Origin: Leptolyngbyaceae cyanobacterium
GTDB taxonomy: Bacteria; Cyanobacteriota; Cyanobacteriia; Cyanobacteriales; Nostocaceae
NCBI GenBank assembly: GCA_036704005.1
Contig: DATNQO010000120.1
Coordinates: 3,298-67,297 of the forward strand
Length of the DNA: 64,000 nucleotides
Direction of reading: 5' to 3'
Shown here: positions 11,988 to 40,742 of the stretch, in pieces
Numbering within the stretch: position 1 is the first letter of the stretch
How the letters are laid out: every line of letters begins with the position of its first letter
Made by a program: the position numbers and the translations under genes
The notes under the pieces: generated by a model
What the model saw: the letters and a program-made list of their open reading frames with translations, nothing else
Database searches by the model: none
Told to the model about the DNA's origin: nothing

Positions 11988-12084
11988 TAATTTCGGTTAG
12001 GAAAGGAACTAGGGCTTGTTTTCCAAGTCTTTAAATACCTCCTAACCGCCCTTAAAATTAGGTAATAGGTAATTGTCTGTTACT

Positions 12085-12149
12085 ATTACCCATTACCTAT
12101 TACCAACCCCAAGATAGGATAAGTGTTTAAGCGGACATAATATAATATC
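12085..12149. repeat. dispersed repeat (second copy at 54898-54955)
   Basis: Shared core TTACCCATTA..AACCCCAAGATA..ATAAGTGTTTAAGC..ACAT.ATAT in the same orientation at both loci. Confidence 0.7.
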
Positions 12150-12153
12150 TCAC

Positions 12154-24389: not shown

Positions 24390-24482
24390 GAGTGGGGAGT
24401 GGGGGGAGATGAGGGAGATGAGGGAGAATAACTAATGACCAATGACTAATGACTAATGACCAATGACTAATGACTAATGATT
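24390..24482. repeat. STRR arrays (GAGTGGG/GAGATGAGG units, then AATGACT units)
   Basis: Read directly between convergent genes. Confidence 0.9.
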
Positions 24483-25834: not shown

Positions 25835-27760
25835 TTATAGATAATTATTTCCAACATGCTCATGAGAACCGAATGTTTCTAAGCTTAAAATACCAGCCGA
25901 TGATTTACAACTAACTCGTAAACTAGAATCAACACGAAAGTAATAAATATCTGCATTTGCAAATTTTGCAAATTGTAAACTTCCATTTTGCTTAAGCACT
26001 ACGGTATCTCCATCTGCTTCTGTTAGTAAATAAGATACTTTCGCTAGTGTTTCCTGTAGCTTAACTCTATCTCTATTATTACGATTATTTTGATAATCCC
26101 TTATAAAAGAGCTTGTATAAGATAAACGAGGAAAAACTAATAAATCCTTTGATAAAAAATCATTTTTGCACTTTTTCCAAATTAATGCACCCCAATTTGA
26201 TAAAATAGCATTATTATCAATCGTAAATATAAATGTTTCGGGGATACCTTCAGCTTCTCGTAAATTGATAGAGCCTGCCTCCATTAATGCAAATTTGACA
26301 GGATTGATAATTGAAGTATCAAGTTGTATAGGTATTCTAGGAATATTTATAAGCGTTGGATTTACTCCTTCAAGAACATAAAGAAGCTCATCAGCATATA
26401 ACATTCCAATTATATCCATATATGCTTGTAAGACTCTAGAACTTGCTACTAAGTTAAAAGAAATTCTGTATCCAGAATTTCTGAAGTTAGAAGCTATATC
26501 GTCTAACCAAACCAACAATTCATCTACACCATTCTTAAATCTTTCAGTGTTCGCTGTTGAAAATCCTTTTGGTATATATATATTAGCATTAAGCCCTTGA
26601 CCTCTAAGAAAATCCTGAATAATATCAGCTGTAACTCTAGATATTAGAGTATCACTAGCAATTAAAAAATGATAATCTTGTTTCCCCTGTTCTAATTTAC
26701 CTTGATACAACGCATAAATTACACTAAGTTCAATACTTGCCAACCGAACATCTCTTATACGACCTCCAAAGAGATTTGTAATTGCTCTTTCTTTAAGTTG
26801 ATCAATTATACTTTTAGCTTCTGGACTATACTCTTCAAGTTCTATATTTGTATAGTTAATACTCCGCCGCAAAATGTCGAACCAATAGCTATGGTCGTAC
26901 TTTCTATCAAGTTGATTAGTTAATAGACTTGTACCAAGAGTGGAAATAACTACTCGACGCATAGAGGTTGTTTTTATAGAATTTACTAATGTCCAATCTG
27001 GGGTTTCTGATTCAAGGGATAAATCATAAAGAATATCCTCAAATTGGTTTGTTTCTATTTGTTCTGTAATGGGGAAAATTACACTAGCACTTTCTAACAG
27101 ATTTTTCTGTTGAAGTACTTCGTCAAGTTGATCTGGACGTGTCTCGAAATTGTCTCTAGCTTCGCTTGCAATCCTGTTTACGTCAACCAACAACGGCTCG
27201 AAGCCAGCCTCAAGCAGAGGCTCTGCCAAAGTCTCCACTAAAGAAGCTAACCGCAACACTTCACCTATTTCTTCTTGCTGCACTCTTTGACTTATTGCTT
27301 GGGCTAACTCCTGCGCCACTTCATCAGGTTTGGTATACGCCAACGCTGTCCACTCCTGAGCTTCTCGCAAATCCTGTGTATCTGCGTCATCATCAGTTAA
27401 TCGCTGCGCTACATAATCTAATAAAAATTCCCCCAGTTCATCAAATCTTTCCTGCCCAAACTCCTTCTTCAATTCCCGCAACAATAAATTGCGATCGCTA
27501 ATATCCATCTCATACATCTCATAACCCACCTGACGACACAACCGCGACAGCAACACATGAGCAACCGCCACCCAAGGGGCTTGAGGAACAAAGTTTGCCC
27601 AAATTTGGTAAAGTAAATCAGGTGTCAGTACCAAAGGAAACGCCGCATGACGAGCTAAGTTGCGGTGTGCTTCCCCAAACTGCTGGGCAAACCCTTCTAC
27701 CCGTCTTTGGGCTATTCTCATCGCACGACTTTGGTTAATATCTGCCGTCACATCAGCCAT
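25835..27760 (-). CDS. three-module protein: helical N-domain (vWA-MoxR-associated by position) + CARF-like domain (APE2256/Csx1-type motifs) + RelE/ParE-like C-terminus
   Basis: 641 aa; the start overlaps the vWA stop by 13 nt. aa 267-445 hold VVISTLGTSLLTN, RLASIELS, FLIASDT and FNLVASS. aa 595-641 read FAKFANADIYYFRVDSSLRVSCKSSAGILSLETFGSHEHVGNNYL (RelE/HigB-like). Confidence 0.6.
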   Translation of the reverse strand: MADVTADINQSRAMRIAQRRVEGFAQQFGEAHRNLARHAAFPLVLTPDLLYQIWANFVPQAPWVAVAHVLLSRLCRQVGYEMYEMDISDRNLLLRELKKEFGQERFDELGEFLLDYVAQRLTDDDADTQDLREAQEWTALAYTKPDEVAQELAQAISQRVQQEEIGEVLRLASLVETLAEPLLEAGFEPLLVDVNRIASEARDNFETRPDQLDEVLQQKNLLESASVIFPITEQIETNQFEDILYDLSLESETPDWTLVNSIKTTSMRRVVISTLGTSLLTNQLDRKYDHSYWFDILRRSINYTNIELEEYSPEAKSIIDQLKERAITNLFGGRIRDVRLASIELSVIYALYQGKLEQGKQDYHFLIASDTLISRVTADIIQDFLRGQGLNANIYIPKGFSTANTERFKNGVDELLVWLDDIASNFRNSGYRISFNLVASSRVLQAYMDIIGMLYADELLYVLEGVNPTLINIPRIPIQLDTSIINPVKFALMEAGSINLREAEGIPETFIFTIDNNAILSNWGALIWKKCKNDFLSKDLLVFPRLSYTSSFIRDYQNNRNNRDRVKLQETLAKVSYLLTEADGDTVVLKQNGSLQFAKFANADIYYFRVDSSLRVSCKSSAGILSLETFGSHEHVGNNYL

Positions 27761-28911
27761 GAGTACATCACCTCCCCAGCAATATATCGACCCCGCAACA
27801 CAGTAATTGCTGCATTCATTCCCTGCGGACTCATCTCAAACATCGGCACAAAACGGGCAATTTCCTCAGCCGTAGTTTGCCGCCAGCATTCACTAGGCAT
27901 GGGATTCAACCAAGCAAAATAACGCACCGACTGCTGTAACTGCTCAATCCATACCTTAGTATTATCAACCCGTTCTGGGTCAAAATTCCCCCGTGCTGCT
28001 CCGGCATCGCTAATAATTAATACAGCCGCCCTTTCGCCTATTTCCGCCAAGACTTCAGAAACAGCCTTCGCCTCAAGCATCGCTGGATGTCGATATAAGT
28101 ATTCATCCGGGTAGTCATGAAAATAAAATACATTGGTTGTTCTCAACCGTCCTCCCCGTTGTGCCGTTTCCACCAACTGCCGCGATAAATCGTGAAACGG
28201 AACCATTGAGCCTTCCTGGTCAATTAGTAGCACCAAATCCGTGCGATTTGTACGCGGTGGCATCATCACAGGTTGCAGTAAAATACCCTCACGCCCAATT
28301 TTCGCCACCGTCGCTTCCACATCTAATTCTGTAGGTACTCCTTGGCGCACCGGACGACGCAGATAACGCCAGCATTGCTTCATTTGTCGCTTAGTCACAG
28401 GGAAATATTCTGTCAACAGCATATAACGAGGGCGTTTGAGTTCCCTATCCCTGCGAATACTCCGCACCGCTTGGACAGCTTGCACTGGTTCTGGTGTAAT
28501 AGTGGGAGTTGTTTCTAAATTAGATATTACTTCATCATCAAGAGGAAATTCTTCAGATGTAGCTGTTTCAATTGAGGTTGATTCATCATTTTCTGGTGTA
28601 AATGATTCTGAAATTAAAGTTGAAGTGTCATTACTGGATGTAGGTTCATGCAAAGATTCTGGAGAATTTACAGGGTGTAATTCGATTTGTTTCCACATCT
28701 CCCCAAATAAGCGTTGAATCAGGCGATTTTCTTCTTCAGATTTTGCCCACAACATACAACAAAGCTGCTCTAATTCCAGGCGACTATTAACACCAAACCC
28801 GGCTTTGAAACTACGCACAACCACTAAATATTCTTCAACCCCCAACGGCAAACCATGTCTCTGTCGCAGGCTGTTAAAAATATCTAGCAGTGATAGTTCT
28901 TCAAGTTTCAT
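27748..28911 (-). CDS. vWA-domain protein, CoxE-like
   Basis: 387 aa. Helical N-domain, S/T/E/P-rich linker, WRYLRRPVRQGVPTELDVEATV, and MIDAS-position LLIDQEGSM. Overlaps both neighbours. Confidence 0.7.
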   Translation of the reverse strand: MKLEELSLLDIFNSLRQRHGLPLGVEEYLVVVRSFKAGFGVNSRLELEQLCCMLWAKSEEENRLIQRLFGEMWKQIELHPVNSPESLHEPTSSNDTSTLISESFTPENDESTSIETATSEEFPLDDEVISNLETTPTITPEPVQAVQAVRSIRRDRELKRPRYMLLTEYFPVTKRQMKQCWRYLRRPVRQGVPTELDVEATVAKIGREGILLQPVMMPPRTNRTDLVLLIDQEGSMVPFHDLSRQLVETAQRGGRLRTTNVFYFHDYPDEYLYRHPAMLEAKAVSEVLAEIGERAAVLIISDAGAARGNFDPERVDNTKVWIEQLQQSVRYFAWLNPMPSECWRQTTAEEIARFVPMFEMSPQGMNAAITVLRGRYIAGEVMYSWLM

Positions 28912-29821
28912 ATTTTTTTAAATATCGCAGATGGTCTTCCCATTTCTTTAACAGAACTTCTGGAAAAGGTATTTCTCCCTCTAACTGCTTTAACACCTCA
29001 TCTTCAGGAAATTGCCGCAACACTGCAAACCAATCTAACAACTCACTGGTGCTAACTTTTTTACCTGCTTTCCCCTTCTCCATTTTCTGACGTAATTCAC
29101 TAAAACGCTGCACCGCAGCTTCCACTAAATCCGGTGAAGATTCCGAAAAGTGTGACTTGACAATATTAGCTAATTGTGAATATGGAAACTGAATATAATA
29201 AAACAGACAACGCCGCAGGAAAGCGTCTGGTAAATCCTTTTCATCGTTGCTAGTAACGATAATAATTGGAGGGTAATTTGCTTTGACTTCTTCTCCCTTT
29301 TCTTCAATTGTAAATTTCTGTTCATCTAACTCTCGTAACAAATCATTAGGGAAGTCAATATCAGCTTTATCAATTTCATCAATTAAAACTACGGTGCGCT
29401 GTTCATTTTTAAACGCACGTCCCAAAGGCCCCAATTTAATATAATTATCTAAATCCTTGACTTGAGAATTGCTTGCTTCCCCGATGCGAGAAAGTTGAGC
29501 ATCATGCAAGCGTCCAACCGCATCGTAGGTGTAAAGTCCATCTCTCGCCCTGGTTGTAGACTTAATAAACCAAGCTTCATAGGGTAAACCCAATTCGTAA
29601 GCTACCGCTTGCGCTAAAGTCGTTTTACCGCATCCTGGTTCACCTTTGAGCAATAAGGGGCGTTTTTCTAAGAAAATTGCCAGATTAACAGCTTGAATGA
29701 GTTCTGGTGATGGTAAGTAAGGAGTGAGTCCGTACTTTTGGCACTCTTGGGGTGAAATTGGCTTGCCTGTATAATATTGCTTGCCATTGGCAGTGAGTAC
29801 ACTTGCTAAATTTTGATACAT
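28901..29821 (-). CDS. MoxR-type AAA+ ATPase
   Basis: 306 aa. Walker A GEPGCGKT, Walker B VVLIDEIDKAD, sensor-1 IIIVTSN and FLRRC. Confidence 0.8.
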   Translation of the reverse strand: MYQNLASVLTANGKQYYTGKPISPQECQKYGLTPYLPSPELIQAVNLAIFLEKRPLLLKGEPGCGKTTLAQAVAYELGLPYEAWFIKSTTRARDGLYTYDAVGRLHDAQLSRIGEASNSQVKDLDNYIKLGPLGRAFKNEQRTVVLIDEIDKADIDFPNDLLRELDEQKFTIEEKGEEVKANYPPIIIVTSNDEKDLPDAFLRRCLFYYIQFPYSQLANIVKSHFSESSPDLVEAAVQRFSELRQKMEKGKAGKKVSTSELLDWFAVLRQFPEDEVLKQLEGEIPFPEVLLKKWEDHLRYLKKYET

Positions 29822-31371
29822 TGGGTAAAAACCTTTTCACAATCAATACTAAAAAAACTACAAATTTCTTCAAAGACAAATTGGGGAATACCTTGACAAG
29901 ACTTTTGAAACAATATTTCAGATGTCAATTTATCAAATTCGACTTCTATATCACTACGCTGCATCACAACTTCTGTTATCCATTCTTCAAGAATTTCCAG
30001 GGAAAAACTATCTACTGCGGGTAAGTATAGAGGTATTCGTGGGTCTAGAGGTTGAGGAGTTGTTGATACATTAATATTTGACTGGTGTACTTTGCCGCCA
30101 TGATCTACTAAAAACATAAACAAGTGAGTAGATTTTTTAGGTGGATTTTCTTTTCCGATATTTACCAATGGCTGCCAAAACTCCTCTAGCCAAGCAGATA
30201 AAATTTCTGGTTGTAAGCAATCTACTTTATTAAATATGAAAACCATATCTTGAGTCTGCCAGCGATCGCAAATTTTCTCCAAAATTTCGGAGGTAGAAAT
30301 TGGATGTACATGAAAATAACGTCCTAATTGCGTCCATAAGCGTTCTATATCTCTGTAACCTACATCAATGACAATTGGCTTGTTTTTCAAACTTGGTATC
30401 ATACGAAATAACTTAGCCAGCAAAACTTCTAATCCACACTCAGGTGCGTGATGAACTAAGAAGCCTGCTGTAAAGTAGCTTTTCATTACCTTCTTGACTA
30501 TATTTGTCTGTTGTTTAAAATCTACTTGTAAGAGTAAATCAAATATTAAAGTATGTTTCGTGTTTTGAGAAAGATTCGTTGTTTCTGACTGAGGTTTAGC
30601 CTTTCCTTGAATCAGCTTAATAGCTTCGCCGTGGTTGCTAATTACTGGGGATTGGGGAATTTTAGCCAAATTGTAATATCTTTGTAGGTTCTGCTCAACC
30701 GAATCTGCAAGCTTCAGGTTTGTAATCCAGTCCCCTTCTGTAACTCGATGAGGGTTAAGTCCCGCTAAAATAGCACCTGTAAGTACCCCATGTTTACCAT
30801 CTAACTGCTGATAGGCAACTTCATAGTCACGGGATGCAGCAATCAAGAAGCGATCGCAACCAGAACTATGTCTTTCCAGTTCAGTATCTTGGAAATTTAG
30901 TAATTCTCCAGCAAAACAGCAATCAAGCCAGATAATCTGCTGTTTAACCTTACTTCGGTGCAATATATCCCATAAATCTCGTAGCGAAAAACCCCATTGA
31001 TTTTTGCTAGGACAACTATCACTAGCTGCTAAATAACCATACGTTAACTCTTGGCTTAATTGCTTACGCAGTCCATGTCCAGTAAAAAATAGTAGTGCTG
31101 TTTCTGGAGGTTTTTCGGTCTTCGGGAGGAATAGATCGAGAATTGCTTGTTCTAGTTCTTCTGTCTTAACTAGTTTATCTGGATCAACCTGCATCCCGTC
31201 TATATTGCTGGCTGGAAATCGCTTAACTCGGAAGTTCCCGTGGGTTTCTAGAATTTGAGCGATCGCTTCCGCATCCCCGGCTGGCGTAGTTAGGTGCTTG
31301 GCTTTACTTGTCGGTGTATCCTTTAAAGATGGATATTGATTGACCCCAACTACAATTGCTTCTCTTCTCAT
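29806..31371 (-). CDS. caspase-like (C14-type) peptidase fused to a degenerate P-loop-NTPase-like region and a short C-terminal domain
   Basis: 521 aa. His in LLFFTGHG (H99), Cys in IIWLDCCFAG (C151). aa ~275-430 have NTPase-like strand/helix spacing, but the Walker-A position reads HHAPECGLE. Confidence 0.7.
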   Translation of the reverse strand: MRREAIVVGVNQYPSLKDTPTSKAKHLTTPAGDAEAIAQILETHGNFRVKRFPASNIDGMQVDPDKLVKTEELEQAILDLFLPKTEKPPETALLFFTGHGLRKQLSQELTYGYLAASDSCPSKNQWGFSLRDLWDILHRSKVKQQIIWLDCCFAGELLNFQDTELERHSSGCDRFLIAASRDYEVAYQQLDGKHGVLTGAILAGLNPHRVTEGDWITNLKLADSVEQNLQRYYNLAKIPQSPVISNHGEAIKLIQGKAKPQSETTNLSQNTKHTLIFDLLLQVDFKQQTNIVKKVMKSYFTAGFLVHHAPECGLEVLLAKLFRMIPSLKNKPIVIDVGYRDIERLWTQLGRYFHVHPISTSEILEKICDRWQTQDMVFIFNKVDCLQPEILSAWLEEFWQPLVNIGKENPPKKSTHLFMFLVDHGGKVHQSNINVSTTPQPLDPRIPLYLPAVDSFSLEILEEWITEVVMQRSDIEVEFDKLTSEILFQKSCQGIPQFVFEEICSFFSIDCEKVFTQCIKI

Positions 31372-31417
31372 ACTAACTAATTTTCACCGTACCAAGTATC
31401 ACAAAATACCCACTTTA

Positions 31418-33628
31418 ATGAATACTTCCGTTCCCAAAACTCTACTAGCTTTTTTACTGGCGCTCAAAGAATTGGAAGTTCCGTTGAGCAAAGATGAACA
31501 AGAGCTTTTGCATGATATAGGAAATCAACTTAAACTAGCTCCTGATGATTGGGATCTGATTGAAGCCGAATTAATCGCTATTATTCAAGCAAACTCCGTA
31601 CTAAATCATATTTATGAGTATAACAAAGTCAAATTAGATGCTTTAGAGGGAAGTTTCCCTAGAGAATTGTTACCAAGTCTAGCTGACTTAGAGAAAGAAT
31701 TATTTGCGGACACAAGAGAAATCATCACTTTTGACGGTCAAACTAAAGGTGAACCTAACAATCAACCAAACCTATTAATTAGCCTGACCAGTTCTATCCT
31801 GCTTACTGATAACCAAGACAACATTATAAAACAGCTACCTTTCATACAAAATATTGCTGAGTATGTAGAAAAATATCGTTACTTTAATACTTACTTTGTT
31901 AAACCTGATGAGGATGGGCGATGTGATAATTTCACAACAGTACCACCCAGTCAACCTTTAATACACGGACAAACTTATTTATTATGTGTAGATATCAGCC
32001 CAGAACGAAAAGGCATAGAAAGTGAGCCTATGCCCTTTCCAGAGCAAGCCTTGGCTGAGGTTTGGCATGACTCAGAATCCTTACCTCTTGATTTAGTCGT
32101 GGCTTCCAAGGATTTTAACATTGATGCAACTGTCAAAAAACTAACCCTACCCCGCACTGGTGCATCAGAGATTGTACAGTTCACGATTAAACCTAACTTG
32201 TTTGAAGGTCGGGGTTACATTCACATAGACTTGTTATATCGCGGATATCTGCTTCAGTCCAAGCAAATCACAGTCCTTATCATCCCCATAGCAGGAGCCG
32301 AAATCCCGGAATCACTGCGCCCACCGCAAACCGCTAAGATAACCTTTACCACCACAGACTTACTGACTCATGAAAAGCTAGCACTGTTGCCTGAGCGATT
32401 CTTCACTGTAGATGTACAGGTAGATACAAGAGATGGTAGCACTGACCTGCGCTTTCTCGACAGAACACAGGGCAATGAAGAATTATTGTCTTACAGTACC
32501 AATTTACAATCTGGGCTGGGGAATGCGATCGCCAGAATCCGGCAAAAATTGCACTCAATGGCGACGGCTTATAAGTTTAAAACTCAAGGCGATATGCAGC
32601 TTCTAAATACTTGGCTACCTCAGTTAGCTGATGCTGGACACTCTTTATATCGCTCACTACTTGATAAAAACAAAGGTCTAACATTAGGTGAAGATAGAGG
32701 CGAAAAATTAAGCGCCGCCTTGAAACCCGATAGCGTCATCCAAATTAACCCGATTAACCCTATTTTAGGATTGGGAAAGTCTACCATTCCTTGGGCGTTA
32801 CTATACGAGCGTAAAGTAATGACCAGTAAAGAAAATCATGTCTGCAAAGAGTTTCTCAATCACGACATCGACTGTACTGATTGCCCTTTTAAAAATAATT
32901 ATAAAGTTGTTTGCCCTCATGCTTTTTGGGGCTACCGCTATGCTATTGAGCAATTACCAGCTTGGACAATTAGCGAAGGTTCTCAAACGCCTAGCCTTGT
33001 ATGGCAAATTGCTAACAATCAACCTTTATATATTAATTTCAACGTCTGGCGAGATTTTAGGTTTTGGCAAAACCACCTACCTAAAATTGAACAACTTGGT
33101 TCCGTGAAAATATTAATAGCTGAAGAAATAAACGACTTGGAACTAATTTGGTCAAATCACAGTTCAGACTTAGATATTATCTACTTTTATTGTCATGGAG
33201 GCATAGACGAAACTGAAAATTTGCCCTACTTGCAACTGAGCGATGACAAAATTTACAGTAATTTTATCGAAGCCTGTGAGGTAAACTGGCAGCATCGCCC
33301 TTTAGTTTTACTCAACGGTTGCGCTACAGGTGATTATGGCCCTGATAGTTACATCAGCTTAATTGATGACTTTCGTGTAGCTGGCGCTAGTGGTGTCATT
33401 GGTACAGAATGTCCTATACCAGAGTTATTTGCAGAACTTTATGCTGTCACTCTGCTGAAACGGGTATTTCGGGGCGAACCTTTAGGAAAAGCTATGCTGA
33501 CAGTGCGGCGAGAAATGCTTCAGCAAAACCTCAATCCTTTGGGTTTACTGTATTCATTGTATGCTCCTTATGAGATTGCTTTAGCTCGTGCGTTGGCGCA
33601 GCCCGCCGTAGGCATCGCCCCTAATTAA
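31418..33628 (+). CDS. CHAT-domain (caspase-fold) protease with unknown N-terminal region
   Basis: C-terminal IIYFYCHGG (His codon 33194-33196) and LVLLNGCATG (Cys codon 33320-33322). Cys cluster C-x9-C-x2-C-x9-C-x-H at 32843-32920. ATG 31418 preferred over TTG 31340. Confidence 0.75.
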   Translation: MNTSVPKTLLAFLLALKELEVPLSKDEQELLHDIGNQLKLAPDDWDLIEAELIAIIQANSVLNHIYEYNKVKLDALEGSFPRELLPSLADLEKELFADTREIITFDGQTKGEPNNQPNLLISLTSSILLTDNQDNIIKQLPFIQNIAEYVEKYRYFNTYFVKPDEDGRCDNFTTVPPSQPLIHGQTYLLCVDISPERKGIESEPMPFPEQALAEVWHDSESLPLDLVVASKDFNIDATVKKLTLPRTGASEIVQFTIKPNLFEGRGYIHIDLLYRGYLLQSKQITVLIIPIAGAEIPESLRPPQTAKITFTTTDLLTHEKLALLPERFFTVDVQVDTRDGSTDLRFLDRTQGNEELLSYSTNLQSGLGNAIARIRQKLHSMATAYKFKTQGDMQLLNTWLPQLADAGHSLYRSLLDKNKGLTLGEDRGEKLSAALKPDSVIQINPINPILGLGKSTIPWALLYERKVMTSKENHVCKEFLNHDIDCTDCPFKNNYKVVCPHAFWGYRYAIEQLPAWTISEGSQTPSLVWQIANNQPLYINFNVWRDFRFWQNHLPKIEQLGSVKILIAEEINDLELIWSNHSSDLDIIYFYCHGGIDETENLPYLQLSDDKIYSNFIEACEVNWQHRPLVLLNGCATGDYGPDSYISLIDDFRVAGASGVIGTECPIPELFAELYAVTLLKRVFRGEPLGKAMLTVRREMLQQNLNPLGLLYSLYAPYEIALARALAQPAVGIAPN

Positions 33629-33643
33629 TTGTCTGATACCATC

Positions 33644-35296
33644 ATGAAACGCTGGATTACTGCTGCATTACTAATTTTACTTGTTTGTCCTGCTCCTGCT
33701 ATTGCTCAAACTAACGTCAAAATTGAAATCGATGCTAAAGATAAGCCTTTAGAAATTAAAGGTTGGCTGGGTGAAGAGAATAGTTTAATTAGCAATATCC
33801 GATTAACCGCTTCTGGGGGAAACATCACATCTTGGACATTTCTACCCTCAGACTTGAAGCGCCAAGAGGGAGATGAGGTATTAGGCCGACAACAGGTAGA
33901 ATTAATAGGCGATCGCAAGTTAGAAGCTGGACTACCAAAGGATTTCCAGGTGAAACTTAACGGTGTTAAGTTACCAGGAACTTACCAAGGACAACTGGAA
34001 ATACTTCTACCCAATCAAAAGCGGTCTGAAGCTTTGGTAATTCCTTTAACAGTGACAGCAAAAGCCAAACCTGCATTAGTACCAGCCAAAGATTCAGAAC
34101 AATTGCAACTACAATTAGTCCGATGCAGTTGGGACTGTGGTTTAGCGCAGTTATTACTTCCTGCGAGTGCTTTCCAAAGTCAAAGACTAATTTATTTAGA
34201 TAATCCTAATCAAGCAACTGTATCTCTGACCAGTGCAGAAGTAATTTTACAAGGGAAATTAACAAACTATCAAATTACCAATACTGAGGTAGAACCACCA
34301 GTAAGTCCCCAAACTTTAGCTGCGAATAAAATTATTAGTTTGCCTTTGAAGTGGGAGCGATCGCAAATTCCCCCCGACAGATATACTGGAGCAGTTTACC
34401 TGACAATGGAAGGTAGAGAAGGAAGACTATCAATTCCCATAGATTTAAGTATGCGGACTGGCCCAGCCATACCAATTTTAGTGTTATTGCTGGGTATTTT
34501 GTTGGGTAGGTTGTTTAAATATATGCAGGAAAAGGGGATTCCACAATCGGATGCTTTGGCGAAAGTCTATGAACTAGAGAACTTGATTAGTCAAGCCGAC
34601 CCCCAAGACCAAGAAATTCTCAGTCCGATGATTAATCAAGTCCGAAGTTCAGTTACTCAAATGGATTTAGAAACAGTAAATGCAGATTTAGCCATCATTA
34701 AAGAGCGTTTCAACTCCTTAGATAAGCTAAGAAAAATCGAACAGCAGTTACAAGATATGAAACAAGACCCTGATGTGGGTGGTGATAACGGAATATTAGC
34801 CAAAATTAATGAAGCTCGAAAGAACATTAAATTAGAAAAGGATAATCAAGCTCAAGAATTGCTGCAACAAATACAGGATAGTATCATCCAACTCCAGAAG
34901 AATGTAATGATGGGAGGAAATCAACCACCTGATCCTAGTTTGATAATAGCCGCAAATGAAGCTGCTGAGGCTAGAAAATATGCTGAAGCTATACAAGCTC
35001 AGAAACTTAAAACTCCTCGGTTTGTTTGGTGGAGAAGACCTTTAATAGTTATAGCTGGAGTATCTAACGAATTACGAGCAGAAGCTACTTTGTGGGTGGT
35101 GCGACCACTGTTATCTTTAACTTTGTTATTAGGATTGTCCCTAGTAGGGTTACGTGCTTTGTATGTAGAAAAGGGGTTAACCTTTGGTGCTAACCCCTTT
35201 TCTGATTATGTGGAATTAATATTATGGGGATTGAGTGCAGATGTCGCTAGTCGGAGTTTGAGTAATTTGGCGGGGGGAGAGGAAAAGAAAGAGTAG
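33644..35296 (+). CDS. signal-peptide membrane protein with beta-rich N-region, coiled coil and C-terminal TM helices
   Basis: MKRWITAALLILLVCPAPAIAQ signal, TM at AIPILVLLLGILLG, long charged helical region, and two further hydrophobic segments. Starts 15 nt after the CHAT stop. Confidence 0.6.
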   Translation: MKRWITAALLILLVCPAPAIAQTNVKIEIDAKDKPLEIKGWLGEENSLISNIRLTASGGNITSWTFLPSDLKRQEGDEVLGRQQVELIGDRKLEAGLPKDFQVKLNGVKLPGTYQGQLEILLPNQKRSEALVIPLTVTAKAKPALVPAKDSEQLQLQLVRCSWDCGLAQLLLPASAFQSQRLIYLDNPNQATVSLTSAEVILQGKLTNYQITNTEVEPPVSPQTLAANKIISLPLKWERSQIPPDRYTGAVYLTMEGREGRLSIPIDLSMRTGPAIPILVLLLGILLGRLFKYMQEKGIPQSDALAKVYELENLISQADPQDQEILSPMINQVRSSVTQMDLETVNADLAIIKERFNSLDKLRKIEQQLQDMKQDPDVGGDNGILAKINEARKNIKLEKDNQAQELLQQIQDSIIQLQKNVMMGGNQPPDPSLIIAANEAAEARKYAEAIQAQKLKTPRFVWWRRPLIVIAGVSNELRAEATLWVVRPLLSLTLLLGLSLVGLRALYVEKGLTFGANPFSDYVELILWGLSADVASRSLSNLAGGEEKKE

Positions 35297-35300: not shown

Positions 35301-35804
35301 TTAGATAATAGGTGCATGAGGGCCTACATCACCCCCTGAAAAAGGTTGATTCTCTTTTATTCGCTCTTCCAAAAGAGTTGATAGTTCTTCTGGAGTTTTC
35401 ACCCATAATCTTTCAATATTAGAACTTTCTGATGTGTTCAGAAGTTCTTTGATGTAATTTTCTTGTTCTGTAGTCACAGCTACAGGTAAATCTGGTGTAC
35501 CCACAATAGTAATTGTTGGATAATACAGGGCTTCAGCAATAGTAAAGCCAAATCGACAGCGAAATTTATTAAAATATTGCCAACTGGCTTGAATCCAAGG
35601 GATAGGAACTATTTCGGTTTCATTTTGACCAAATAGAATATATTGTAATAACAAATTATCTACTTTATCGACCAACTCCATAGCTTTAATTATTTTGCAA
35701 GTTGACTCATTGTCAAAAGAAAACTTAACTTGTTTAGTATCTTCGTCTATCTTTAATTTTCTTCTAGTCTTTTCAACAGCAATAGAAAAAGGAACTAATT
35801 CCAT
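35301..35804 (-). CDS. hypothetical protein, operon partner of the caspase-STAND gene
   Basis: 167-aa ORF beginning 11 nt after the upstream stop. No family recognised. Confidence 0.5.
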   Translation of the reverse strand: MELVPFSIAVEKTRRKLKIDEDTKQVKFSFDNESTCKIIKAMELVDKVDNLLLQYILFGQNETEIVPIPWIQASWQYFNKFRCRFGFTIAEALYYPTITIVGTPDLPVAVTTEQENYIKELLNTSESSNIERLWVKTPEELSTLLEERIKENQPFSGGDVGPHAPII

Positions 35805-35815: not shown

Positions 35816-38800
35816 TTATTTAACTATAGGTTTATTAGAACGATAGACTCCTTGATCTGTCCCAATCCACAGATATTTATCCGTCCCCAAAATCATATTA
35901 TAAACTTTCTTAACTTGACCGTTTTTGATAGAAATATTTACCCAATTATTGTCTATATGGTTATATAAAGAAATATGGTTTTTATTTGTCAGAGCTAATA
36001 TTGATTTATTAGGTAAAATGATTAAATCTAATATAGTACTGCCTAATGTAGAGTAATTACTTATATCGTTATTTTTCAACCTGGAGTCACTGGAAACATT
36101 CGTGATCATACTCACATTTCCATTAAAGTCACCAATGGCTAAGGTTCTTTGCTCAGAATTAAAATTTAATGTTCTGAAATCTCTAAATGGTAATTTAAAA
36201 CCATCCTGTTGTTTTTCATGGTAACATATAGGTTGATCATTACCTATACCCATACGGATAAGAGCCTCTGGTGCAGATATCCATAAAGAATTATTATTTT
36301 TATCTATAACTATTTTATCAATATGCAATGATGAAGTAGGTAGGGATTTACATAGCTGATGAATATCTCTGATATATTGCCATCCTCTAGAATTTTGTAT
36401 GTAAAGCCCCTGATCAGTTCCTAACCACAAGTTACCTTGTTTATCTTTAGCTATCGTTAAAATTTCTGTATCATTAGGAATAGATTTAATAGTTTTAAAT
36501 ACCATTTTATCATTATCTAACTTGCCTTTTAGCACACCTAATTCTTTAACTCCAACCCAAATTTCTTCTCCTTCAGCCCAAATAGCACTGACTTTTTTTT
36601 CCGGTAAATATTTACTTAAAATATGAGTTTGCATATTGTACTGCCATAAACCTAGACCATGTTTTCTCAACAATCCATTATGGAAATATCTCTTAGGCGA
36701 ATATGCTGCCATCCACAATGATTTATTAGTAATAATTAACTTTTCTATGGAAAAATTCACTGTTTCTTGAATGGGCGAGGTTTGATTGATTGCTTGTTTT
36801 AAATTTTCTATTTCATTTTTCTTGGTTAGTATTTCTGTTGTTTTTACTAACTGAATACTCAGCATTATAGAAAATCCCGTAGTCATACATAAAGCAAAAA
36901 TTAAACCTATAAAAGTGTTTTTTCGCCGACGATTCTTTATAAATTCTTGTCTATCTGTTTCTATGCGACTAATTTTAATAAACTCTTGCGCTAAACTAGA
37001 TAAATGTATGATTCTGAAATTCTTTTCTAAAAAATATTCAACTTCAGCTAGTTTTTTTCCTTGTAATAGATAAGCTGATTCAAACATCTTACCTTTATCT
37101 TCCCATTCTTCGGCAGCAGCCTGGATCCTGCGCTCAGTTCTAATCGCCTCCCGATTATTATCCAGCAACTTTTGCAACCTTGACCAATGGCGAATTAAGG
37201 CTTCATGCGCTACATCCACTACCGCCACCTTCTCCTCACCTCGACGTTGTTCGCTAGTAACAATTAACTTAGCCTGTGCCAATTTTTGAATTACTTGCTT
37301 TACCAACTGTGCAGATTTACCCAACGAATCTAAATCTCGCTGCGGAACTTGCTTACGTGTATCTGGTGTCCCTTCCCCTAACTGAGTTAAATTAATAAAA
37401 ATCAAATCTGCTATTTTTTGTTCTTCAGCCGATAGTTGTTTGTAAGTTTGTTCTGCCAGATTTTCTAGAGTTTTTCGCACCCCACCTAATTGATGATAAC
37501 TGTCTAGCTTCAACCAATTTAATGTCTGCCGTTGCCAAAGTTGTTCTAAAGTATATGACAATAAAGGCAACATTCCCGGTTCAGGTTCTTGTGGGGAATC
37601 TTCAACAGCAACTCCCAAATCTTGGAGAATAGCATTAATGAGATTTTCTTCCACCTTCCGCCCTAGTTTGGCTGCTGGTTCTCTGATGACTCGCTGCAAC
37701 TCTTCTAAAGACATGGGAGTTACCATCAGCAAATTGCTTTGAATTAAATCAGCCAGTTGATGATGTGTAGCACATTTACCTAAAAAGTCATCACGCATGG
37801 CAAATATCAGGCAGAGTTTATCTTCTGTCTGTTTGAGCGCACCTAATAAACTAGAAATAAAATGTTGTCGGTCAGTTGGGTTTTGACAAAGGGTAAAAAT
37901 CTCTTCAAATTGATCGACAATTAGTAGGGTACGGGGCGATCGCGCTGCTTTAATTAATCTTGCCACTCCCGTTGCACCTTGAGCGATCGCATCTTCTGCT
38001 ATTTTTAGCTGTTCTGCACGCTGAATATCTGTGACTGACTCATCAAGAAATACCGTGGCTAAACTTACCAAAGGTCGCTCTGTGGGAGTCAACACCCGAA
38101 TCTTCCATTGTTCTGTCTCTGGTAATCTACGTTCCTGTTGTAATTGGTATATCAACCCCGCTCGTAGTAAGGAAGATTTCCCACTCCCCGACACCCCCAA
38201 GACTGCCAAAAAGTTGCCTTTACCCACCTGAATGTGCTGGATGAGCTTTTGGGTTAATAATTCTCGCCCATAAAAATAAGCTGCATCTTCAACATCAAAG
38301 AAACGTAATCCTTTGTATGGACAAACTCCCTCTGGGATGTGGATGAGAGTATTTTCCCGTTCCCCAGTGAGAATAATTTCCCGGTTGGGATTATACCATA
38401 TCGGTTGTTGGGGAATCTCCTTGAGTGTTTGGGAAATAAACTCAATTAATTTGTCATTGTTGACCAAACCATCTGGCTGTTGTCTGGGGTCTAGTCCTTG
38501 CCATAGTGCTTGAGAAAATACCCCATGCTGTCCTGCAATATCTTCCTCTGCAACTTCAAATTCTCTGGATGCCGCGATGAAAAATCGCGTCTGTTCTTGA
38601 GGCGATGTACCTAAATCTGCTTCTCGAAAATTAAATAACTCTCCACTGTAGCAACAGTCAAGCCAGACTATTTGCTGCTTGAGAGGGCTTTTTTGCAACA
38701 GTTCTCGCAACCATCGCAGGGAAACACCCCATTGATTCTTGCGGGGGTCAACGTCACTGGTAGCTAAAAAACCTTCTGTGACTCCGCCGCGATTTTTGCG

Positions 38801-39106
38801 TAAACCATGACCGATAAAGTACAGCAGTGCCGTTTCTGGGACATTCTGTCCCACTGGGTTAAATAGCTGAATAATTGCATCTTCTAATGTATCAGACTTG
38901 ACCAAGCCATCAGATGCAACGCAACGCTGTTCACCTTGAATCCTTTCTGGTAAGCGCCGCACACGAAAACCGCCATATTCTTCCAATCGTTGGGCGATCG
39001 CTTCGGCATCATTAGCAGGAGTAACCAGATTTTTCGCTTTGCTTGTTGGAGTATCTTTCAGGAAAGGATACTGATTAATTCCCACTACCAGCGCATCTCG
39101 ATTCAT
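35816..39106 (-). CDS. caspase-like peptidase + STAND P-loop NTPase + TM helix + beta-propeller (Reg_prop-like repeats)
   Basis: 1096 aa. H100 (YFIGHG), C151 (VWLDCCYSG). PYKGLRFFDVEDAAYFYGRE precedes Walker A GVSGSGKS and Walker B LLIVDQFEE. TM at aa 731-754. Repeats NLWLGTDQGLY, SLWISAPEAL and YLWIGTDQGVY. Confidence 0.75.
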   Translation of the reverse strand: MNRDALVVGINQYPFLKDTPTSKAKNLVTPANDAEAIAQRLEEYGGFRVRRLPERIQGEQRCVASDGLVKSDTLEDAIIQLFNPVGQNVPETALLYFIGHGLRKNRGGVTEGFLATSDVDPRKNQWGVSLRWLRELLQKSPLKQQIVWLDCCYSGELFNFREADLGTSPQEQTRFFIAASREFEVAEEDIAGQHGVFSQALWQGLDPRQQPDGLVNNDKLIEFISQTLKEIPQQPIWYNPNREIILTGERENTLIHIPEGVCPYKGLRFFDVEDAAYFYGRELLTQKLIQHIQVGKGNFLAVLGVSGSGKSSLLRAGLIYQLQQERRLPETEQWKIRVLTPTERPLVSLATVFLDESVTDIQRAEQLKIAEDAIAQGATGVARLIKAARSPRTLLIVDQFEEIFTLCQNPTDRQHFISSLLGALKQTEDKLCLIFAMRDDFLGKCATHHQLADLIQSNLLMVTPMSLEELQRVIREPAAKLGRKVEENLINAILQDLGVAVEDSPQEPEPGMLPLLSYTLEQLWQRQTLNWLKLDSYHQLGGVRKTLENLAEQTYKQLSAEEQKIADLIFINLTQLGEGTPDTRKQVPQRDLDSLGKSAQLVKQVIQKLAQAKLIVTSEQRRGEEKVAVVDVAHEALIRHWSRLQKLLDNNREAIRTERRIQAAAEEWEDKGKMFESAYLLQGKKLAEVEYFLEKNFRIIHLSSLAQEFIKISRIETDRQEFIKNRRRKNTFIGLIFALCMTTGFSIMLSIQLVKTTEILTKKNEIENLKQAINQTSPIQETVNFSIEKLIITNKSLWMAAYSPKRYFHNGLLRKHGLGLWQYNMQTHILSKYLPEKKVSAIWAEGEEIWVGVKELGVLKGKLDNDKMVFKTIKSIPNDTEILTIAKDKQGNLWLGTDQGLYIQNSRGWQYIRDIHQLCKSLPTSSLHIDKIVIDKNNNSLWISAPEALIRMGIGNDQPICYHEKQQDGFKLPFRDFRTLNFNSEQRTLAIGDFNGNVSMITNVSSDSRLKNNDISNYSTLGSTILDLIILPNKSILALTNKNHISLYNHIDNNWVNISIKNGQVKKVYNMILGTDKYLWIGTDQGVYRSNKPIVK

Positions 39107-39281
39107 TAGTTTGAGACATATTTTTGGTCAATATAATTGTTTTACAGCGAATTTCCAAAACTCTCAACATCTTCTCTTCCCACACCTCCCAAACCTTATA
39201 GATTATTTTCAATGAACGGCTTTAACTGAAAGATAACCTTAACATGAGATTCTATTGAATTATTTATTCGTAAGGAGAATC

Positions 39282-39467
39282 ATGGTATTCAACCAAGTCA
39301 CAGAACACCTGATTGCCCTCAAAAATGTTAGAAAATTTTATCAGCAACCCAACGGACAGCAAATTGTTATTTTAGAAAATATTCGTCTTGAGTTGCGTCC
39401 GGGAGAAATAGTGGCATTGCTGGGGCCACGGAAAATGCACCACAATCTTGGATGTTGGATATTTTGA
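39282..39467 (+). pseudogene. 5' fragment of an ABC-transporter ATPase gene
   Basis: AAGGAG Shine-Dalgarno plus ATG 39282. LKNVRKFYQQPNGQQIVILENIRLELRPGEIVALLGP then breaks exactly where the Walker A SGSGKS should follow. Confidence 0.6.
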
Positions 39468-39881
39468 GGCGATTGACATTTAATTATCCACAGCCAGAAT
39501 TTATACTCATTCTCTCATCTGTTAGGTTTAAAGTGAAACTATTTGTACTTCATAAAATTAATCCTAAAGATAGATGAAATATGAAATTTCATGCAATTTT
39601 TAATCGTTATATTTTAGATAGCTACGCAACAAAGCCCATTGATTTTACTCAGAATGCTTTGTTGTAAGCTTTTCAAATAATTTTTATAAGATTTTGATTA
39701 TTCCTGCTCTATTCCAATATTTTATTTATAAAGATAGATGATATTTATATTTATTTTTGATAAAAATAACTAGGATTATTTCCTAGCGTTTGCCAATCTT
39801 TATCCAGGTCTGTCAAATAAAGGGTATCCGCAAAAGTAGCCAAGCTTAACATTTATTGATGTAATTCTCTTACCATTTGCT

Positions 39882-40742
39882 ATGCTTAAAAAAATTGGTA
39901 TTATTACTTTAGGATATGGCAAACCTAGATATATTGAAATGGCAAAAACTTTAGCGCGATCGCTTAAGTTACACTCACCAAATATTTCCAGGGCAATTGT
40001 TACTGATAGAACAGAAGAGAAGGAGATTTTAGAACTTTTTGATATAGTAATTCCTTTTAACAAGGACTACGGTTCTAACTTAAGACAAAAGCTTTACATA
40101 AATGAATATACTCCCTATACGAAAACATTATTTATTGACAGTGACAGCATTGTGGTTAAGGATATTTATTTTATTTTTGAAGAGCTTGAAGGCAGAAGCT
40201 TTACTGTACCAGGGGAAAGACTTTTAAGTTTTGGGGATCAGGACAACTTTATTGAAGATGTAGATTTTATTTTAAAAAAGTTCAATTTAACAGCATTACC
40301 TAAATTCAATGGTGGCGTTTATTATTTTGATGATAGTGAGTGCGCTACTGAAATTTTTACAACAGCTCAAAGCATTTTAAAAGACTGCCACAATTTACCC
40401 TTTAGTCAATTTCGTAATGATGGGCCATCAGAAGAGCCTTTATTTGCAATCGCTATGGCAGTTCACAATCAAACCATGTTTAATGATGCTGGTAGATTTA
40501 TGCGCACCCCTATAGGGATTACAGGAAAGTTGGAAATTGATGTTTTGAAAGGAAAAAGTAGATTTAAAAAGTATCAGAACATAGTATCCCCAGCAATTGT
40601 ACATTTTGCAGGTGATTGGGCAGAAACCTATATTTATTATCGTGAAGCTTTAAAACTAACAGAACAATACCCTTTAGTAAAGTTAATAGCTTTGTTGAAA
40701 GTTTTGCTCCAAGCTCCCAAAAAGTTTTTTGCAAAACATTAA
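39882..40742 (+). CDS. putative GT-A-fold glycosyltransferase
   Basis: 286 aa in very AT-rich DNA. IGIITLGYG...ARSL and the DxD-like LFIDSDSIVV suggest a nucleotide-sugar transferase. Tentative. Confidence 0.4.
   Translation: MLKKIGIITLGYGKPRYIEMAKTLARSLKLHSPNISRAIVTDRTEEKEILELFDIVIPFNKDYGSNLRQKLYINEYTPYTKTLFIDSDSIVVKDIYFIFEELEGRSFTVPGERLLSFGDQDNFIEDVDFILKKFNLTALPKFNGGVYYFDDSECATEIFTTAQSILKDCHNLPFSQFRNDGPSEEPLFAIAMAVHNQTMFNDAGRFMRTPIGITGKLEIDVLKGKSRFKKYQNIVSPAIVHFAGDWAETYIYYREALKLTEQYPLVKLIALLKVLLQAPKKFFAKH

Follow-up and report, generated by a model that had tools for sequence, protein, structure and literature searches.

To our knowledge, the bacterial STAND/NLR-like immune proteins that are understood experimentally all detect their ligands inside the cell. 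In a stretch of 64,000 nucleotides from a Leptolyngbyaceae cyanobacterium (hereafter the window), one gene encodes a caspase and a STAND-type NTPase together with a single hydrophobic helix and a repeat-containing sensor, and this raises the question of whether the sensor of such a switch can lie on the other side of a membrane from its effector.

Domain Composition of the Caspase-nSTAND1 Protein

The caspase-nSTAND1-TM-Reg_prop propeller gene (35816..39106, minus strand) is a single ORF with an ATG start and encodes a protein of 1096 aa, whose full-length orthologues are P0002-P0004 and P0040. Its N-terminal part is a caspase of the Peptidase_C14, orthocaspase type (aa 5-210; 38477..39094, minus strand), assigned by Pfam (E 5.9e-11, 42.9 bits against a cutoff of 21.4) and by the positions of its motifs, that is, a predicted His-Cys dyad in canonical surroundings, with the catalytic His100 (nt 38807-38809, minus strand) in YFIGHG and Cys151 (nt 38654-38656, minus strand) in VWLDCCYSG. 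This domain is 51% identical to the caspase of an iSTAND protein encoded nearby. It is followed by an nSTAND1 NTPase module (aa 263-673; 37088..38320, minus strand), in which the match to PF20703 begins precisely at PYKGLRFF and covers profile positions 1-376 of 379 (E 2.8e-118, 396.3 bits against a cutoff of 27.1). Both nucleotide-binding motifs are intact: Walker A, GVSGSGKS (aa 304-311; nt 38174-38197, minus strand), has the form GxxxxGKS/T, and Walker B, LLIVDQFEE (aa 394-402; nt 37901-37927, minus strand), has the form hhhhD with an acidic residue. A linker (aa 674-730; 36917..37087, minus strand), which contains a recombination junction and has the basic stretch NRRRK at its end, then leads to the hydrophobic helix and the C-terminal repeats.

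The tripartite order of an N-terminal effector (caspase), a central NTPase (nSTAND1) and a C-terminal sensor (TM helix and propeller) is thus present. Profiles and motifs bear out the original prediction that one ORF combines a caspase, a P-loop NTPase, a hydrophobic helix and Reg_prop-like repeats, each of the four parts lying where it had been placed, and the PF20703 match over the whole module assigns the NTPase to nSTAND1. The combined domain evidence for the ORF is well beyond chance. The caspase-nSTAND1 part had no relative of solved structure in a sequence search, and we know of no characterised member of the nSTAND1 family.

The C-Terminal Reg_prop Propeller

Structure prediction (AlphaFold2), structural comparison (Foldseek), Pfam and cysteine invariance all identify the C-terminal region as a seven-bladed beta-propeller of the Reg_prop type (aa 776-1090; 35837..36781, minus strand). 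The AlphaFold2 model of the C-terminal domain (pLDDT 88.5, pTM 0.83) consists of a helical stalk and the propeller: a helix at aa 722-774 is followed by about 28 strands arranged in seven blades, of which the seventh is closed by the N-terminal strand. The doubt that this region might fail to fold as a propeller is dispelled by such a confident model, and the likeness to Reg_prop blades first noticed in the repeats is confirmed both by the fold and by PF07494, at 31.8 bits against a cutoff of 20.4. The best Foldseek matches are 4a2m and 4a2l, the periplasmic domain of BT4663, with a probability of 1.00 for the BT4663 propellers; all in the top set are periplasmic Reg_prop sensor domains from Bacteroides hybrid two-component systems (BT4663, BT4673 and BT3049; E about 1e-11).

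When the C-terminal 342 aa were used as a query against an index of 5.8 billion proteins, two weak Reg_prop matches only were returned and the orthologues were missed, and an exhaustive profile search was used in its place. With a profile made from the module, more than 15,000 Reg_prop proteins are recovered at E<=1e-10. The cassette itself is rare, with about six protein clusters and an occurrence in 2 of 185,579 species genomes, and no literature link between Reg_prop and STAND was found.

Two cysteines, Cys919 (nt 36350-36352, minus strand) and Cys961 (nt 36224-36226, minus strand), are invariant in all 13 known modules, down to about 25-30% identity, and the number of cysteines C-terminal of the TM helix is even in 12 of the 13. 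An invariant pair is what a disulfide in an oxidising compartment would lead one to expect, and the propeller may be stabilised by a C919-C961 bond, as judged from this pattern of residues.

Transmembrane Helix and Membrane Topology

The single TM helix (aa 731-754; 36845..36916, minus strand) has the sequence TFIGLIFALCMTTGFSIMLSIQLV, with a polar patch T-T-G-x-S at mid-helix. For its best 19-mer, the Kyte-Doolittle value is 2.07 and the additive Hessa value -0.75; on the Hessa scale, the most hydrophobic 19-mer of the preceding ~700 aa, taken as a control, reaches +8.4, and the rest of the protein never falls below +8. The segment contains 24 uncharged residues in a row. With 15 residues assessed on each side, six K/R are found on the N side against three on the C side. 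In the AlphaFold2 model, the segment lies within one unbroken helix (aa 722-774), and its continuation, a stalk predicted to be extracytoplasmic (aa 755-774; 36785..36844, minus strand), is continuous with it in secondary structure. Mean identity among orthologues is 65% for the TM helix and 32% for the stalk. The structural and topological part of the original interpretation stands up to each computational test that was applied, and exactly one membrane-spanning helix is predicted.

The conservation of the helix was confirmed among homologues as well: a TM-like segment is present at the equivalent place in 101 of 119 close caspase-nSTAND1 homologues, with none of the N-terminal controls reaching the threshold, and it occurs irrespective of whether the sensor is WD40, FGE-sulfatase, pentapeptide or Reg_prop. 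Although the TM sequences of the different sensor classes are unrelated, their hydrophobicity is kept. Under a stricter hydrophobicity cutoff (62 homologues), flanking K+R average 5.5 N-terminally of the helix against 2.4 C-terminally of it, and the remote module relatives P0125-P0130 each have exactly one TM helix with a basic stretch ahead of it. The membrane-spanning layout is no one-gene curiosity: about 85% of a large cyanobacterial clade of caspase-nSTAND1 proteins have it. The opinion that it is unusual for STAND death switches is not supported for this family, because these homologues share it and published surveys had already predicted caspase-NTPase-TM-WD40 receptors whose sensor lies outside. 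Membrane-bound caspase/NTPase or NACHT proteins responding to extracellular or periplasmic cues were predicted in PMC3501461 (Asplund-Samuelsson 2012), in PMC7475262 (Bhattacharjee & Mishra 2020) and in bioRxiv 10.1101/2022.07.19.500537 (Kibby 2022).

Hydrophobicity, charge bias, cysteine conservation, conservation of the TM helix and analogy together suggest an N-in/C-out topology. The placing of the propeller outside and of the NTPase and protease inside agrees with the charge bias, the Cys pair and the periplasmic relatives of the fold, which bear on location indirectly. A cytoplasmic STAND, in which the hydrophobic segment would be buried, peripheral or re-entrant and the propeller would sense a cytoplasmic ligand as in Avs and Apaf-1, is hard to reconcile with a long uncharged run of negative insertion score in a protein that otherwise scores above +8, with a basic flank on the N side, with hydrophobicity retained over unrelated TM sequences, with an invariant Cys pair and even Cys counts, and with nearest structures that are periplasmic domains. 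Such a reading would keep the protein in the company of the experimentally characterised bacterial STAND sensors, all of them cytosolic as far as is known; 13 of 56 WD40 variants in the family lack the TM segment, a sign that the chassis does not need it, and p167, the product of the adjacent gene, is predicted to be cytoplasmic and co-varies with the sensor cassette. On balance, we consider the cytoplasmic arrangement very improbable.

Which membrane receives the N-in/C-out protein is a further matter, as a cyanobacterial host offers two target membranes, and no signal for sorting to the plasma or the thylakoid membrane is readable in the sequence. With the same architecture inserted into the thylakoid, the propeller would monitor the lumen for photosynthetic or oxidative damage, or for phage takeover of photosynthesis. 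The lumen is oxidising too, so the Cys pair cannot tell it from the periplasm, and the chassis also carries pentapeptide-repeat sensors, a kind of protein known to reside in the lumen. Against the lumen stands the fact that the propeller is closest in structure to glycan sensors of the periplasm, and a lumenal propeller appears unlikely to us.

Cassette Exchange and Selection

The chassis (caspase and nSTAND1) is 83-90% identical between strains, and the N-terminal part is 82-85% identical to proteins with WD40 or FGE C-termini; in the strains that have such cassettes at the same chromosomal site, the chassis is 83-86% identical. Sliding identity and BLAST end-points show that identity to paralogues with other sensors drops from about 90% to background across aa 660-720, the loss falling at aa ~690-720. 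Moreover, the same syntenic site holds a WD40 cassette in one locus (L008) and an FGE cassette in another (L009), both without p167. That these cassettes occupy one chromosomal site on closely related chassis indicates exchange in place. The base composition differs as well: in all six orthologues, GC3 is 0.35-0.47 in the chassis against 0.19-0.27 in the cassette, and p167, with a GC3 of 0.21, is low like the sensor cassette. These observations indicate that the exchangeable C-terminal unit consists of the TM helix and the sensor, and in the Reg_prop type also of the 167-aa gene. Such cassettes would be swapped through recombination at a point shortly before the TM helix, which would give strains different outside-facing specificities.

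The sensor is the faster-evolving part, by a factor of 3-5, with dN/dS of 0.36-0.43 in the propeller against 0.07-0.12 in the chassis; it is under purifying but relaxed selection.

Neighbouring Genes and Genomic Island

Downstream of the caspase-nSTAND1 gene, at a distance of 11 nt, lies the orphan gene p167 (35301..35804, minus strand; 167 aa), and the two are probably co-transcribed. p167 adjoins the Reg_prop variant in all loci examined, being in one of them (L004) the C-terminal domain of the downstream gene, and it forms just six clusters among 5.8 billion proteins. It has no sequence match in Pfam, NCBIfam or PDB and neither a predicted TM helix nor a predicted signal peptide, and its AlphaFold2 model is unusable (pLDDT 43). 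A protein predicted to be cytoplasmic thus tracks a cassette that is predicted to face outside, and the receptor model offers no account of this.

The convergent neighbour (33629..35296, plus strand) encodes a conserved protein of 555 aa that combines a signal peptide and a periplasmic domain with TM segments and a coiled coil. Its identity is 80-83% in four of the five loci and falls to 65% in L003, and its gene remains next to the chassis irrespective of the sensor type. This gene is abutted by that of a CHAT-domain protease (31340..33628, plus strand; PF12770, E 7e-10), a neighbour that is likewise conserved, as synteny shows. Besides this protease, the window holds an iSTAND-MoxR-vWA ternary system. 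Found in the orthologous loci are an integrase, EAD8-NACHT, EAD8-trypsin, or a methyltransferase with an SNF2 helicase, the methyltransferase being of the restriction-modification type with matches to the MmeI/Eco57I family. Of the 164-aa ORF and the integrase found upstream in orthologous loci, no remnant is present within the window; the island has no flanking tRNA gene, and no retroelement was seen nearby.

This setting bears on whether the protein serves in conflict at all. It could be a housekeeping or developmental receptor for filament differentiation, envelope remodelling or kin recognition, whose caspase processes regulators and does not kill; cyanobacterial orthocaspases and CHAT proteases do have non-death roles (PMC7475262, PMC7517822), selection on the propeller is purifying overall, at a dN/dS of about 0.4, and the Reg_prop domains of two-component systems sense glycans. 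A patchy and rare distribution (2 of 185,579 species genomes), a sensor swapped in place between strains and evolving faster than its chassis, and variable islands with integrase, restriction-modification-type and other conflict-system genes all speak against it. Because the sensor is patchy, swapped and fast-evolving and lies in variable islands, a conflict system is favoured over core development, for which the chances seem to us rather slim.

Relation to Known Systems

Membrane-bound cyanobacterial orthocaspases of the order caspase-AAA_16/NACHT-TM-WD40, namely Ava_0039, Ava_3079 and GEI7407_1667, have been described from sequence (PMC3501461, PMC7475262). The present protein resembles the Ava_0039 type in its N-terminal caspase with an intact dyad, its STAND-type NTPase, its one TM helix and its C-terminal propeller predicted outside. 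It differs in having one seven-bladed Reg_prop propeller of about 315 aa in place of some 600-700 aa of WD40 repeats, and in having the invariant Cys pair and p167 as a dedicated orphan partner.

The nSTAND1 conflict systems were set out by Kaur, Burroughs, Iyer and Aravind 2021 (PMC8195603; Pfam PF20703), and nSTAND1-CLec sensors diversified by DGRs by Dore et al. 2024 (PMC10907252). With the conflict systems, our protein shares the nSTAND1 core, the logic of effector, NTPase and variable sensor, the enrichment in multicellular bacteria and the diversification of the sensor; it differs in its TM-anchored propeller and in an effector that is fused directly, with no recruitment through an EAD adaptor. 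In contrast to nSTAND1-CLec, its diversity arises through the exchange of cassettes and through faster point evolution.

The propeller shares its Pfam repeats with the sensors BT4663 (4a2l/4a2m), BT4673 and BT3049, the best propeller match reaching a TM-score of 0.61 on the query at an identity of about 15%. Sensors of this type are extracytoplasmic and relay the signal through a TM helix to cytoplasmic output domains, as is proposed here. They have two propellers with Y_Y_Y, form dimers and use a histidine kinase and a response regulator, whereas a single propeller is coupled here to a STAND NTPase and a protease. Pfam finds no match to Y_Y_Y, HisKA or HATPase in the 1096-aa protein, and this, together with the single ~315-aa propeller, rules out a hybrid two-component sensor of the BT4663 type. 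In the absence of the second propeller and Y_Y_Y, the ligand-binding mode of BT4663 may not transfer.

With Avs1-7, bacterial NACHT proteins and Apaf-1/NLRs, the protein is assumed to share the switch logic of ligand binding, NTP-dependent oligomerisation and activation of the effector by proximity. Those proteins are soluble and have intracellular ligands, while the sensor is predicted here to be across the membrane from the NTPase. Identification as an Avs or another validated anti-phage STAND was rejected, PADLOC giving only a generic caspase (PDLC02987) and weak P-loop matches. Kaur et al. [quoted passage not shown] The caspase studied here belongs to a related subfamily (NCBIfam caspase_w_EACC1, E 3.6e-22), but assignment to this system was rejected: the score is 78.9 bits against a cutoff of 140, and the upstream EACC1 ORF is absent, no small ORF for an EACC1 TM protein being found immediately 5′ of the caspase gene in 39107-39880.

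Proposed Mechanism

Computational analysis demonstrates the domain identities, the fold, the TM helix with its family-wide conservation, the swapping of cassettes and the relaxed purifying selection on the sensor. The reading that we prefer, and judge to be fairly probable, is that the protein is a single-pass N-in/C-out receptor version of the STAND (NLR-like) switch in a Nostocales-type cyanobacterium. The caspase-type protease and the nSTAND1 NTPase would lie in the cytoplasm, and the TM helix and short stalk would hold the propeller on the periplasmic side or, possibly, in the lumen of the thylakoid. If the protein works like the STANDs that have been characterised, binding of an outside ligand to the propeller would reposition or cluster the TM helices and stalks, which would relieve the autoinhibition of nSTAND1 and allow nucleotide exchange and oligomerisation at the inner face of the membrane. 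Oligomerisation would bring the caspase domains together and activate them, and the active caspases would cleave cytoplasmic targets, leading to growth arrest or altruistic death. Activation, oligomerisation, the protease targets and any anti-phage role are proposed from comparison with related switches, and an outcome in death or defence is suggested by the domain content and the island context. p167 and the CHAT/555-aa pair may also have a role.

More tentatively, the whole caspase-nSTAND1 clade might consist of outside-in NLR-like receptors, a counterpart of extrinsic apoptosis, which survey the periplasm, with p167 as a cytoplasmic co-factor or substrate in the Reg_prop lineage; we think this possible rather than probable. 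Phage parts, envelope damage or non-kin cues in the periplasm would then be picked up by interchangeable TM-anchored sensors, and the signal would pass through the conserved TM helix to set off oligomerisation of the STAND and death driven by the caspase. It has been proposed that the cells of filamentous cyanobacteria share their periplasm.

Significance

The membrane-spanning layout itself was already predicted; what is new is the Reg_prop type of propeller, its rarity, its p167 partner and the in-place exchange of cassettes. The practical value of the finding is that of a candidate for experiment rather than of a new principle, and the Reg_prop variant is a compact, well-folding test case: a single propeller that has two diagnostic cysteines, next to a tightly linked partner gene. 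Should the outside-in reading prove true, signalling across a membrane would have been shown for a STAND for the first time.

Domain Architecture and Transmembrane Helix

The caspase-nSTAND1-TM-Reg_prop gene is an intact ORF at 35816–39106 on the minus strand, with an ATG start and a product of 1096 aa. In the Pfam search, Peptidase_C14 was matched at aa 5–210 (E 5.9e-11, score over the cutoff), nSTAND1 (PF20703) at aa 263–673 (E 2.8e-118, 376 of 379 profile positions covered), and a single Reg_prop repeat over the cutoff at aa 879–898, so the profiles bear out the STAND and propeller assignments of the original prediction. All of its caspase and NTPase motifs were also located where it had placed them: H100 within YFIGHG, C151 within VWLDCCYSG, Walker A (GVSGSGKS) at 304–311 and Walker B (LLIVDQFEE) at 394–402. 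Position 1 of the nSTAND1 profile falls on the motif PYKGLRFF at aa 263.

Beyond this caspase and nSTAND1 part (hereafter the chassis) lies the cassette, that is, the TM helix and the sensor. The helix corresponds to the uncharged stretch TFIGLIFALCMTTGFSIMLSIQLV at aa 731–754 (nt 36845–36916), whose top 19-mer has a Kyte-Doolittle value of 2.07 and a score of −0.75 on the additive Hessa insertion scale; the most hydrophobic 19-mer within the first ~700 residues scores +8.4. NRRRK stands directly on the N side of the helix, and the 15 flanking residues contain six K/R on the N side and three on the C side. Since the N-terminal 730 residues have no signal peptide and contain the NTPase, they would be cytoplasmic, and with a single span the C-terminal 340 residues would lie outside. 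We therefore infer an N-in/C-out topology with the propeller outside. Among the orthologues, the helix is one of the best-conserved segments of the cassette (mean identity 65%, against 32% for the stalk and 41–71% for the blades). Together with a mid-helix patch, T-T-G-x-S, this conservation suggests helix–helix contacts or packing rather than a passive anchor.

Fold of the Sensor and Its Cysteines

Using a six-sequence alignment (A1) of aa 721–1096 from the protein and its orthologues, AlphaFold2 gave a model with mean pLDDT 88.5, pTM 0.83 and every segment at or above 50. It contains one unbroken helix (aa 722–774), comprising the TM helix and a 20-residue stalk, followed by ~28 strands, which were assigned to seven blades of four strands each, blade 7 being closed by the first strand (776–778). 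In the Foldseek comparison with the PDB, the top matches (E ~1e-11, TM-score 0.61 normalised to the query) are the periplasmic sensor domains BT4663 (4a2m/4a2l), BT4673 and BT3049 of Bacteroides hybrid two-component systems, and generic WD40 propellers rank below Reg_prop sensor domains. The confident fold and these matches confirm the predicted propeller, the nearest solved relatives of which are themselves periplasmic.

A profile of the module, run against a set of 1.84 billion representative proteins, matched over 15,000 ordinary Reg_prop proteins at E ≤ 1e-10; only ~10 representatives matched it over its full extent of TM helix, stalk and propeller. In Pfam, the N-terminal part of these is Trypsin_2 + nSTAND1 in P0126, nSTAND1 preceded by a short N-terminal peptide in P0128 and P0130, and an AAA_35 ATPase in P0125; the remaining ones are fragments or short forms with an anchor. 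All of these representatives contain a single TM helix with a basic stretch before it. C919 (36350–36352) and C961 (36224–36226), both on the minus strand, are invariant in 13 of 13 TM-propeller modules, down to ~25–30% identity. Additional cysteines come in pairs, and 12 of the 13 modules have an even cysteine count C-terminal to the TM helix. This pattern suggests a structural disulfide of an extracytoplasmic domain, which would place the propeller in an oxidising compartment. If the helix did not span the membrane, the sensor would be cytoplasmic; the hydrophobicity of the helix, the charge bias around it and the invariant Cys pair make this unlikely. Alternatively, the protein may be inserted in the thylakoid membrane, with its sensor facing the lumen.

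Commonness of the Layout in the Family

The full-length search gave 2472 matches at E ≤ 1e-10. The caspase-nSTAND1 core is very common among cyanobacteria, and its alternative C-termini include WD40 propellers, FGE-sulfatase (C-type-lectin fold), pentapeptide repeats, Reg_prop and regions with no known domain. Among the 119 scorable top matches, the 150 residues after nSTAND1 were scanned, with an additive Hessa score below 3.5 counted as TM-like. Such a segment was found in 101 of 119 and in none of the control regions (N-terminal ~650 residues), the median score being 0.9 after nSTAND1 versus 8.4 in the controls. By sensor class, it occurs as follows: Reg_prop (6/6), FGE (9/10), pentapeptide (13/15), no known domain (30/32) and WD40 (43/56). 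In the 62 homologues below a stricter Hessa cutoff, the flanks contain on average 5.5 K+R N-terminal and 2.4 C-terminal to the segment. The other 13 of the 56 WD40-type proteins (P0009, P0010, P0024 and ten more) have no TM-like segment, with up to 84% identity in the chassis. That is to say, soluble and membrane-spanning versions of one switch coexist in the family.

The idea has also been published. Metacaspases with an inside-TM-outside architecture and extracellular receptor domains were catalogued by Asplund-Samuelsson et al. 2012 (PMC3501461). Bhattacharjee & Mishra 2020 (PMC7475262) described orthocaspase-AAA_16/NACHT-TM-WD40 proteins with WD40 predicted to be extracellular, and proposed an 'extrinsic' death pathway. 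Caspase conflict proteins with TM helices followed by extracellular domains were reported by Kaur et al. 2020 (PMC7159879). Some bacterial NACHT proteins have further been described as probable sensors of intramembrane or periplasmic signals (Kibby et al. 2022, bioRxiv 10.1101/2022.07.19.500537), and a periplasmic placement was predicted for some STAND-linked sensors (Dore et al. 2024, PMC10907252). In the literature searched, no experimental tests of these predictions were found. Therefore, the topology and propeller of the original prediction stand as predicted, and its view of the layout as unusual does not: the gene is a Reg_prop cassette variant, with a small downstream partner, of a type that earlier sequence-based work had described, and the concept itself is not new.

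Rarity of the Reg_prop Variant and Its Orphan Partner

In the full-length search, the complete architecture is shared only by P0002, P0003 (Nostoc sp. ChiVER01), P0004, P0013 and P0040. A pattern scan with one genome per species found it in at least two of 185,579 species (Nostoc sp. ChiVER01 and Calothrix anomala FACHB-343), two being a lower bound since the result depends on the patterns used.

The partner is p167 (35301–35804, minus strand), a gene of 167 aa that starts 11 nt past the stop codon of the caspase-nSTAND1 gene. All Reg_prop-type orthologues examined are followed by this gene; at the distant P0040 locus, the homologous sequence makes up the C-terminal half of a 376-aa protein. 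Among 5.8 billion proteins, the family comprises only six clusters, and its linkage with the Reg_prop cassette is strict. p167 has neither a TM helix nor a signal peptide, no match in Pfam, NCBIfam or PDB, and no confident AlphaFold2 fold (pLDDT 43). Its conserved motifs include LQYLLFGQ, PWIQASWxYIDKFRC, IVGTPD, IERLWVKTPEEL and GGDVGPHAP.

Exchange of the Sensor Cassette

The chassis (aa 1–660) is 79–90% identical among orthologues, and WD40- or FGE-bearing proteins are equally close to it (82–85%). A comparison along the protein with those paralogues gives ~90% identity as far as aa 660, ~65% at 661–690 and ~40% at 691–720, with identity lost beyond; this sets the junction a short way upstream of the TM helix. 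The type of TM sequence is particular to each sensor class. When metagenome contigs were probed with the conserved 555-aa neighbour, two further loci were obtained with the same site, composed of a CHAT gene, the 555-aa gene and a convergent caspase-nSTAND1 gene. The last encodes a 1447-aa WD40 variant in L008 and a 1007-aa FGE-sulfatase variant in L009, with N-terminal parts 83–84% identical, and p167 is absent from both loci. The sensor cassette is thus exchanged in place at one site. In L009, a different orphan ORF of 222 aa without a Pfam match (11643–12311 of that locus, minus strand) occupies the position of p167, so other sensor cassettes may carry small partner genes of their own.

A sharp GC3 break lies inside the gene in 6/6 orthologues (the window, L002, L003, L004, L005 and L007), with 0.35–0.47 in caspase-nSTAND1 versus 0.19–0.27 in TM-propeller; p167, at 0.21, is low like the cassette. 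The dN/dS ratio is 0.07–0.12 for caspase and nSTAND1 and 0.36–0.43 for the propeller. In the closest pair (window and L005), dS is similar in chassis and cassette, so in that pair the sensor protein truly evolves faster. In L002 and L007, dS in the cassette is ~2x that of the chassis, which fits recombination homogenising the chassis.

Genomic Surroundings

The gene sits in a conflict island. A complete iSTAND ternary system occupies 25835–31371 on the minus strand, consisting of a caspase-iSTAND (29806–31371), a MoxR-type AAA ATPase (28901–29821), a CoxE-type vWA protein (27748–28911) and a 641-aa protein with a Cas_APE2256/CARF-like domain (25835–27760); its caspase is 51% identical to that of the caspase-nSTAND1 protein. 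A CHAT protease gene (31340–33628, plus strand) abuts the 555-aa gene (33629–35296, plus strand), whose stop codon is 4 nt from that of the convergent p167. The 555-aa protein has a signal peptide, an outside domain of ~250 aa, a TM helix, a coiled coil and C-terminal hydrophobic segments, and is 80–83% identical in four loci of five, L003 being the exception at 65%; conservation of the CHAT/555 pair is about 80–83% in most loci and 63–65% in L003. The pair adjoins the chassis with any sensor (Reg_prop, WD40 in L008 or FGE-sulfatase in L009), and may either work together with the chassis or only reflect inherited synteny. The outer flanks vary by locus and include an integrase, EAD8-NACHT and EAD8-trypsin, a restriction-modification-type methyltransferase (MmeI/Eco57I family matches) with an SNF2 helicase, and another caspase-nSTAND1-WD40 gene. 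A developmental or regulatory role, instead of a defensive one, is less likely in view of the conflict-island context and the patchy distribution.

PADLOC recognised no validated defence system. An EACC1-type system was rejected, as no EACC1 gene lies upstream and the caspase score does not reach the EACC1-type cutoff. Upstream of the gene, a short ORF at 39255–39467 (plus strand) shows similarity to the N-terminal end of ABC-transporter ATPases (…IRLELRPGEIVALLGP…) and is probably a gene remnant in a low-GC spacer. On the opposite strand, also upstream, a 286-aa ORF at 39882–40742 (plus) has low GC (0.33) and no Pfam match, and is absent from the orthologous loci. The island is bordered by a red-chlorophyll-catabolite-reductase-like or bilin-reductase-like gene (24467–25270, minus strand; PF06405, E 5e-23).

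Proposed Mechanism

The best-supported reading is that of a single-pass receptor form of the STAND switch. The outside propeller would capture a ligand, upon which TM helices and stalks would rearrange or cluster; nSTAND1 would then oligomerise in a nucleotide-dependent manner at the inner face of the membrane, and the caspase, activated by proximity, would cleave cytoplasmic targets. p167 and the CHAT/555 pair may each have a role in this process. The domain identities, the fold, the TM helix with its conservation, the exchange of cassettes and the pattern of selection were established by computation; topology, activation and outcome are inferred. To our knowledge, no trans-membrane STAND has been characterised, and the compact Reg_prop variant would be a good experimental entry point. 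Through the cassette system, strains would be able to alter their sensing while the signalling chassis stays unchanged.
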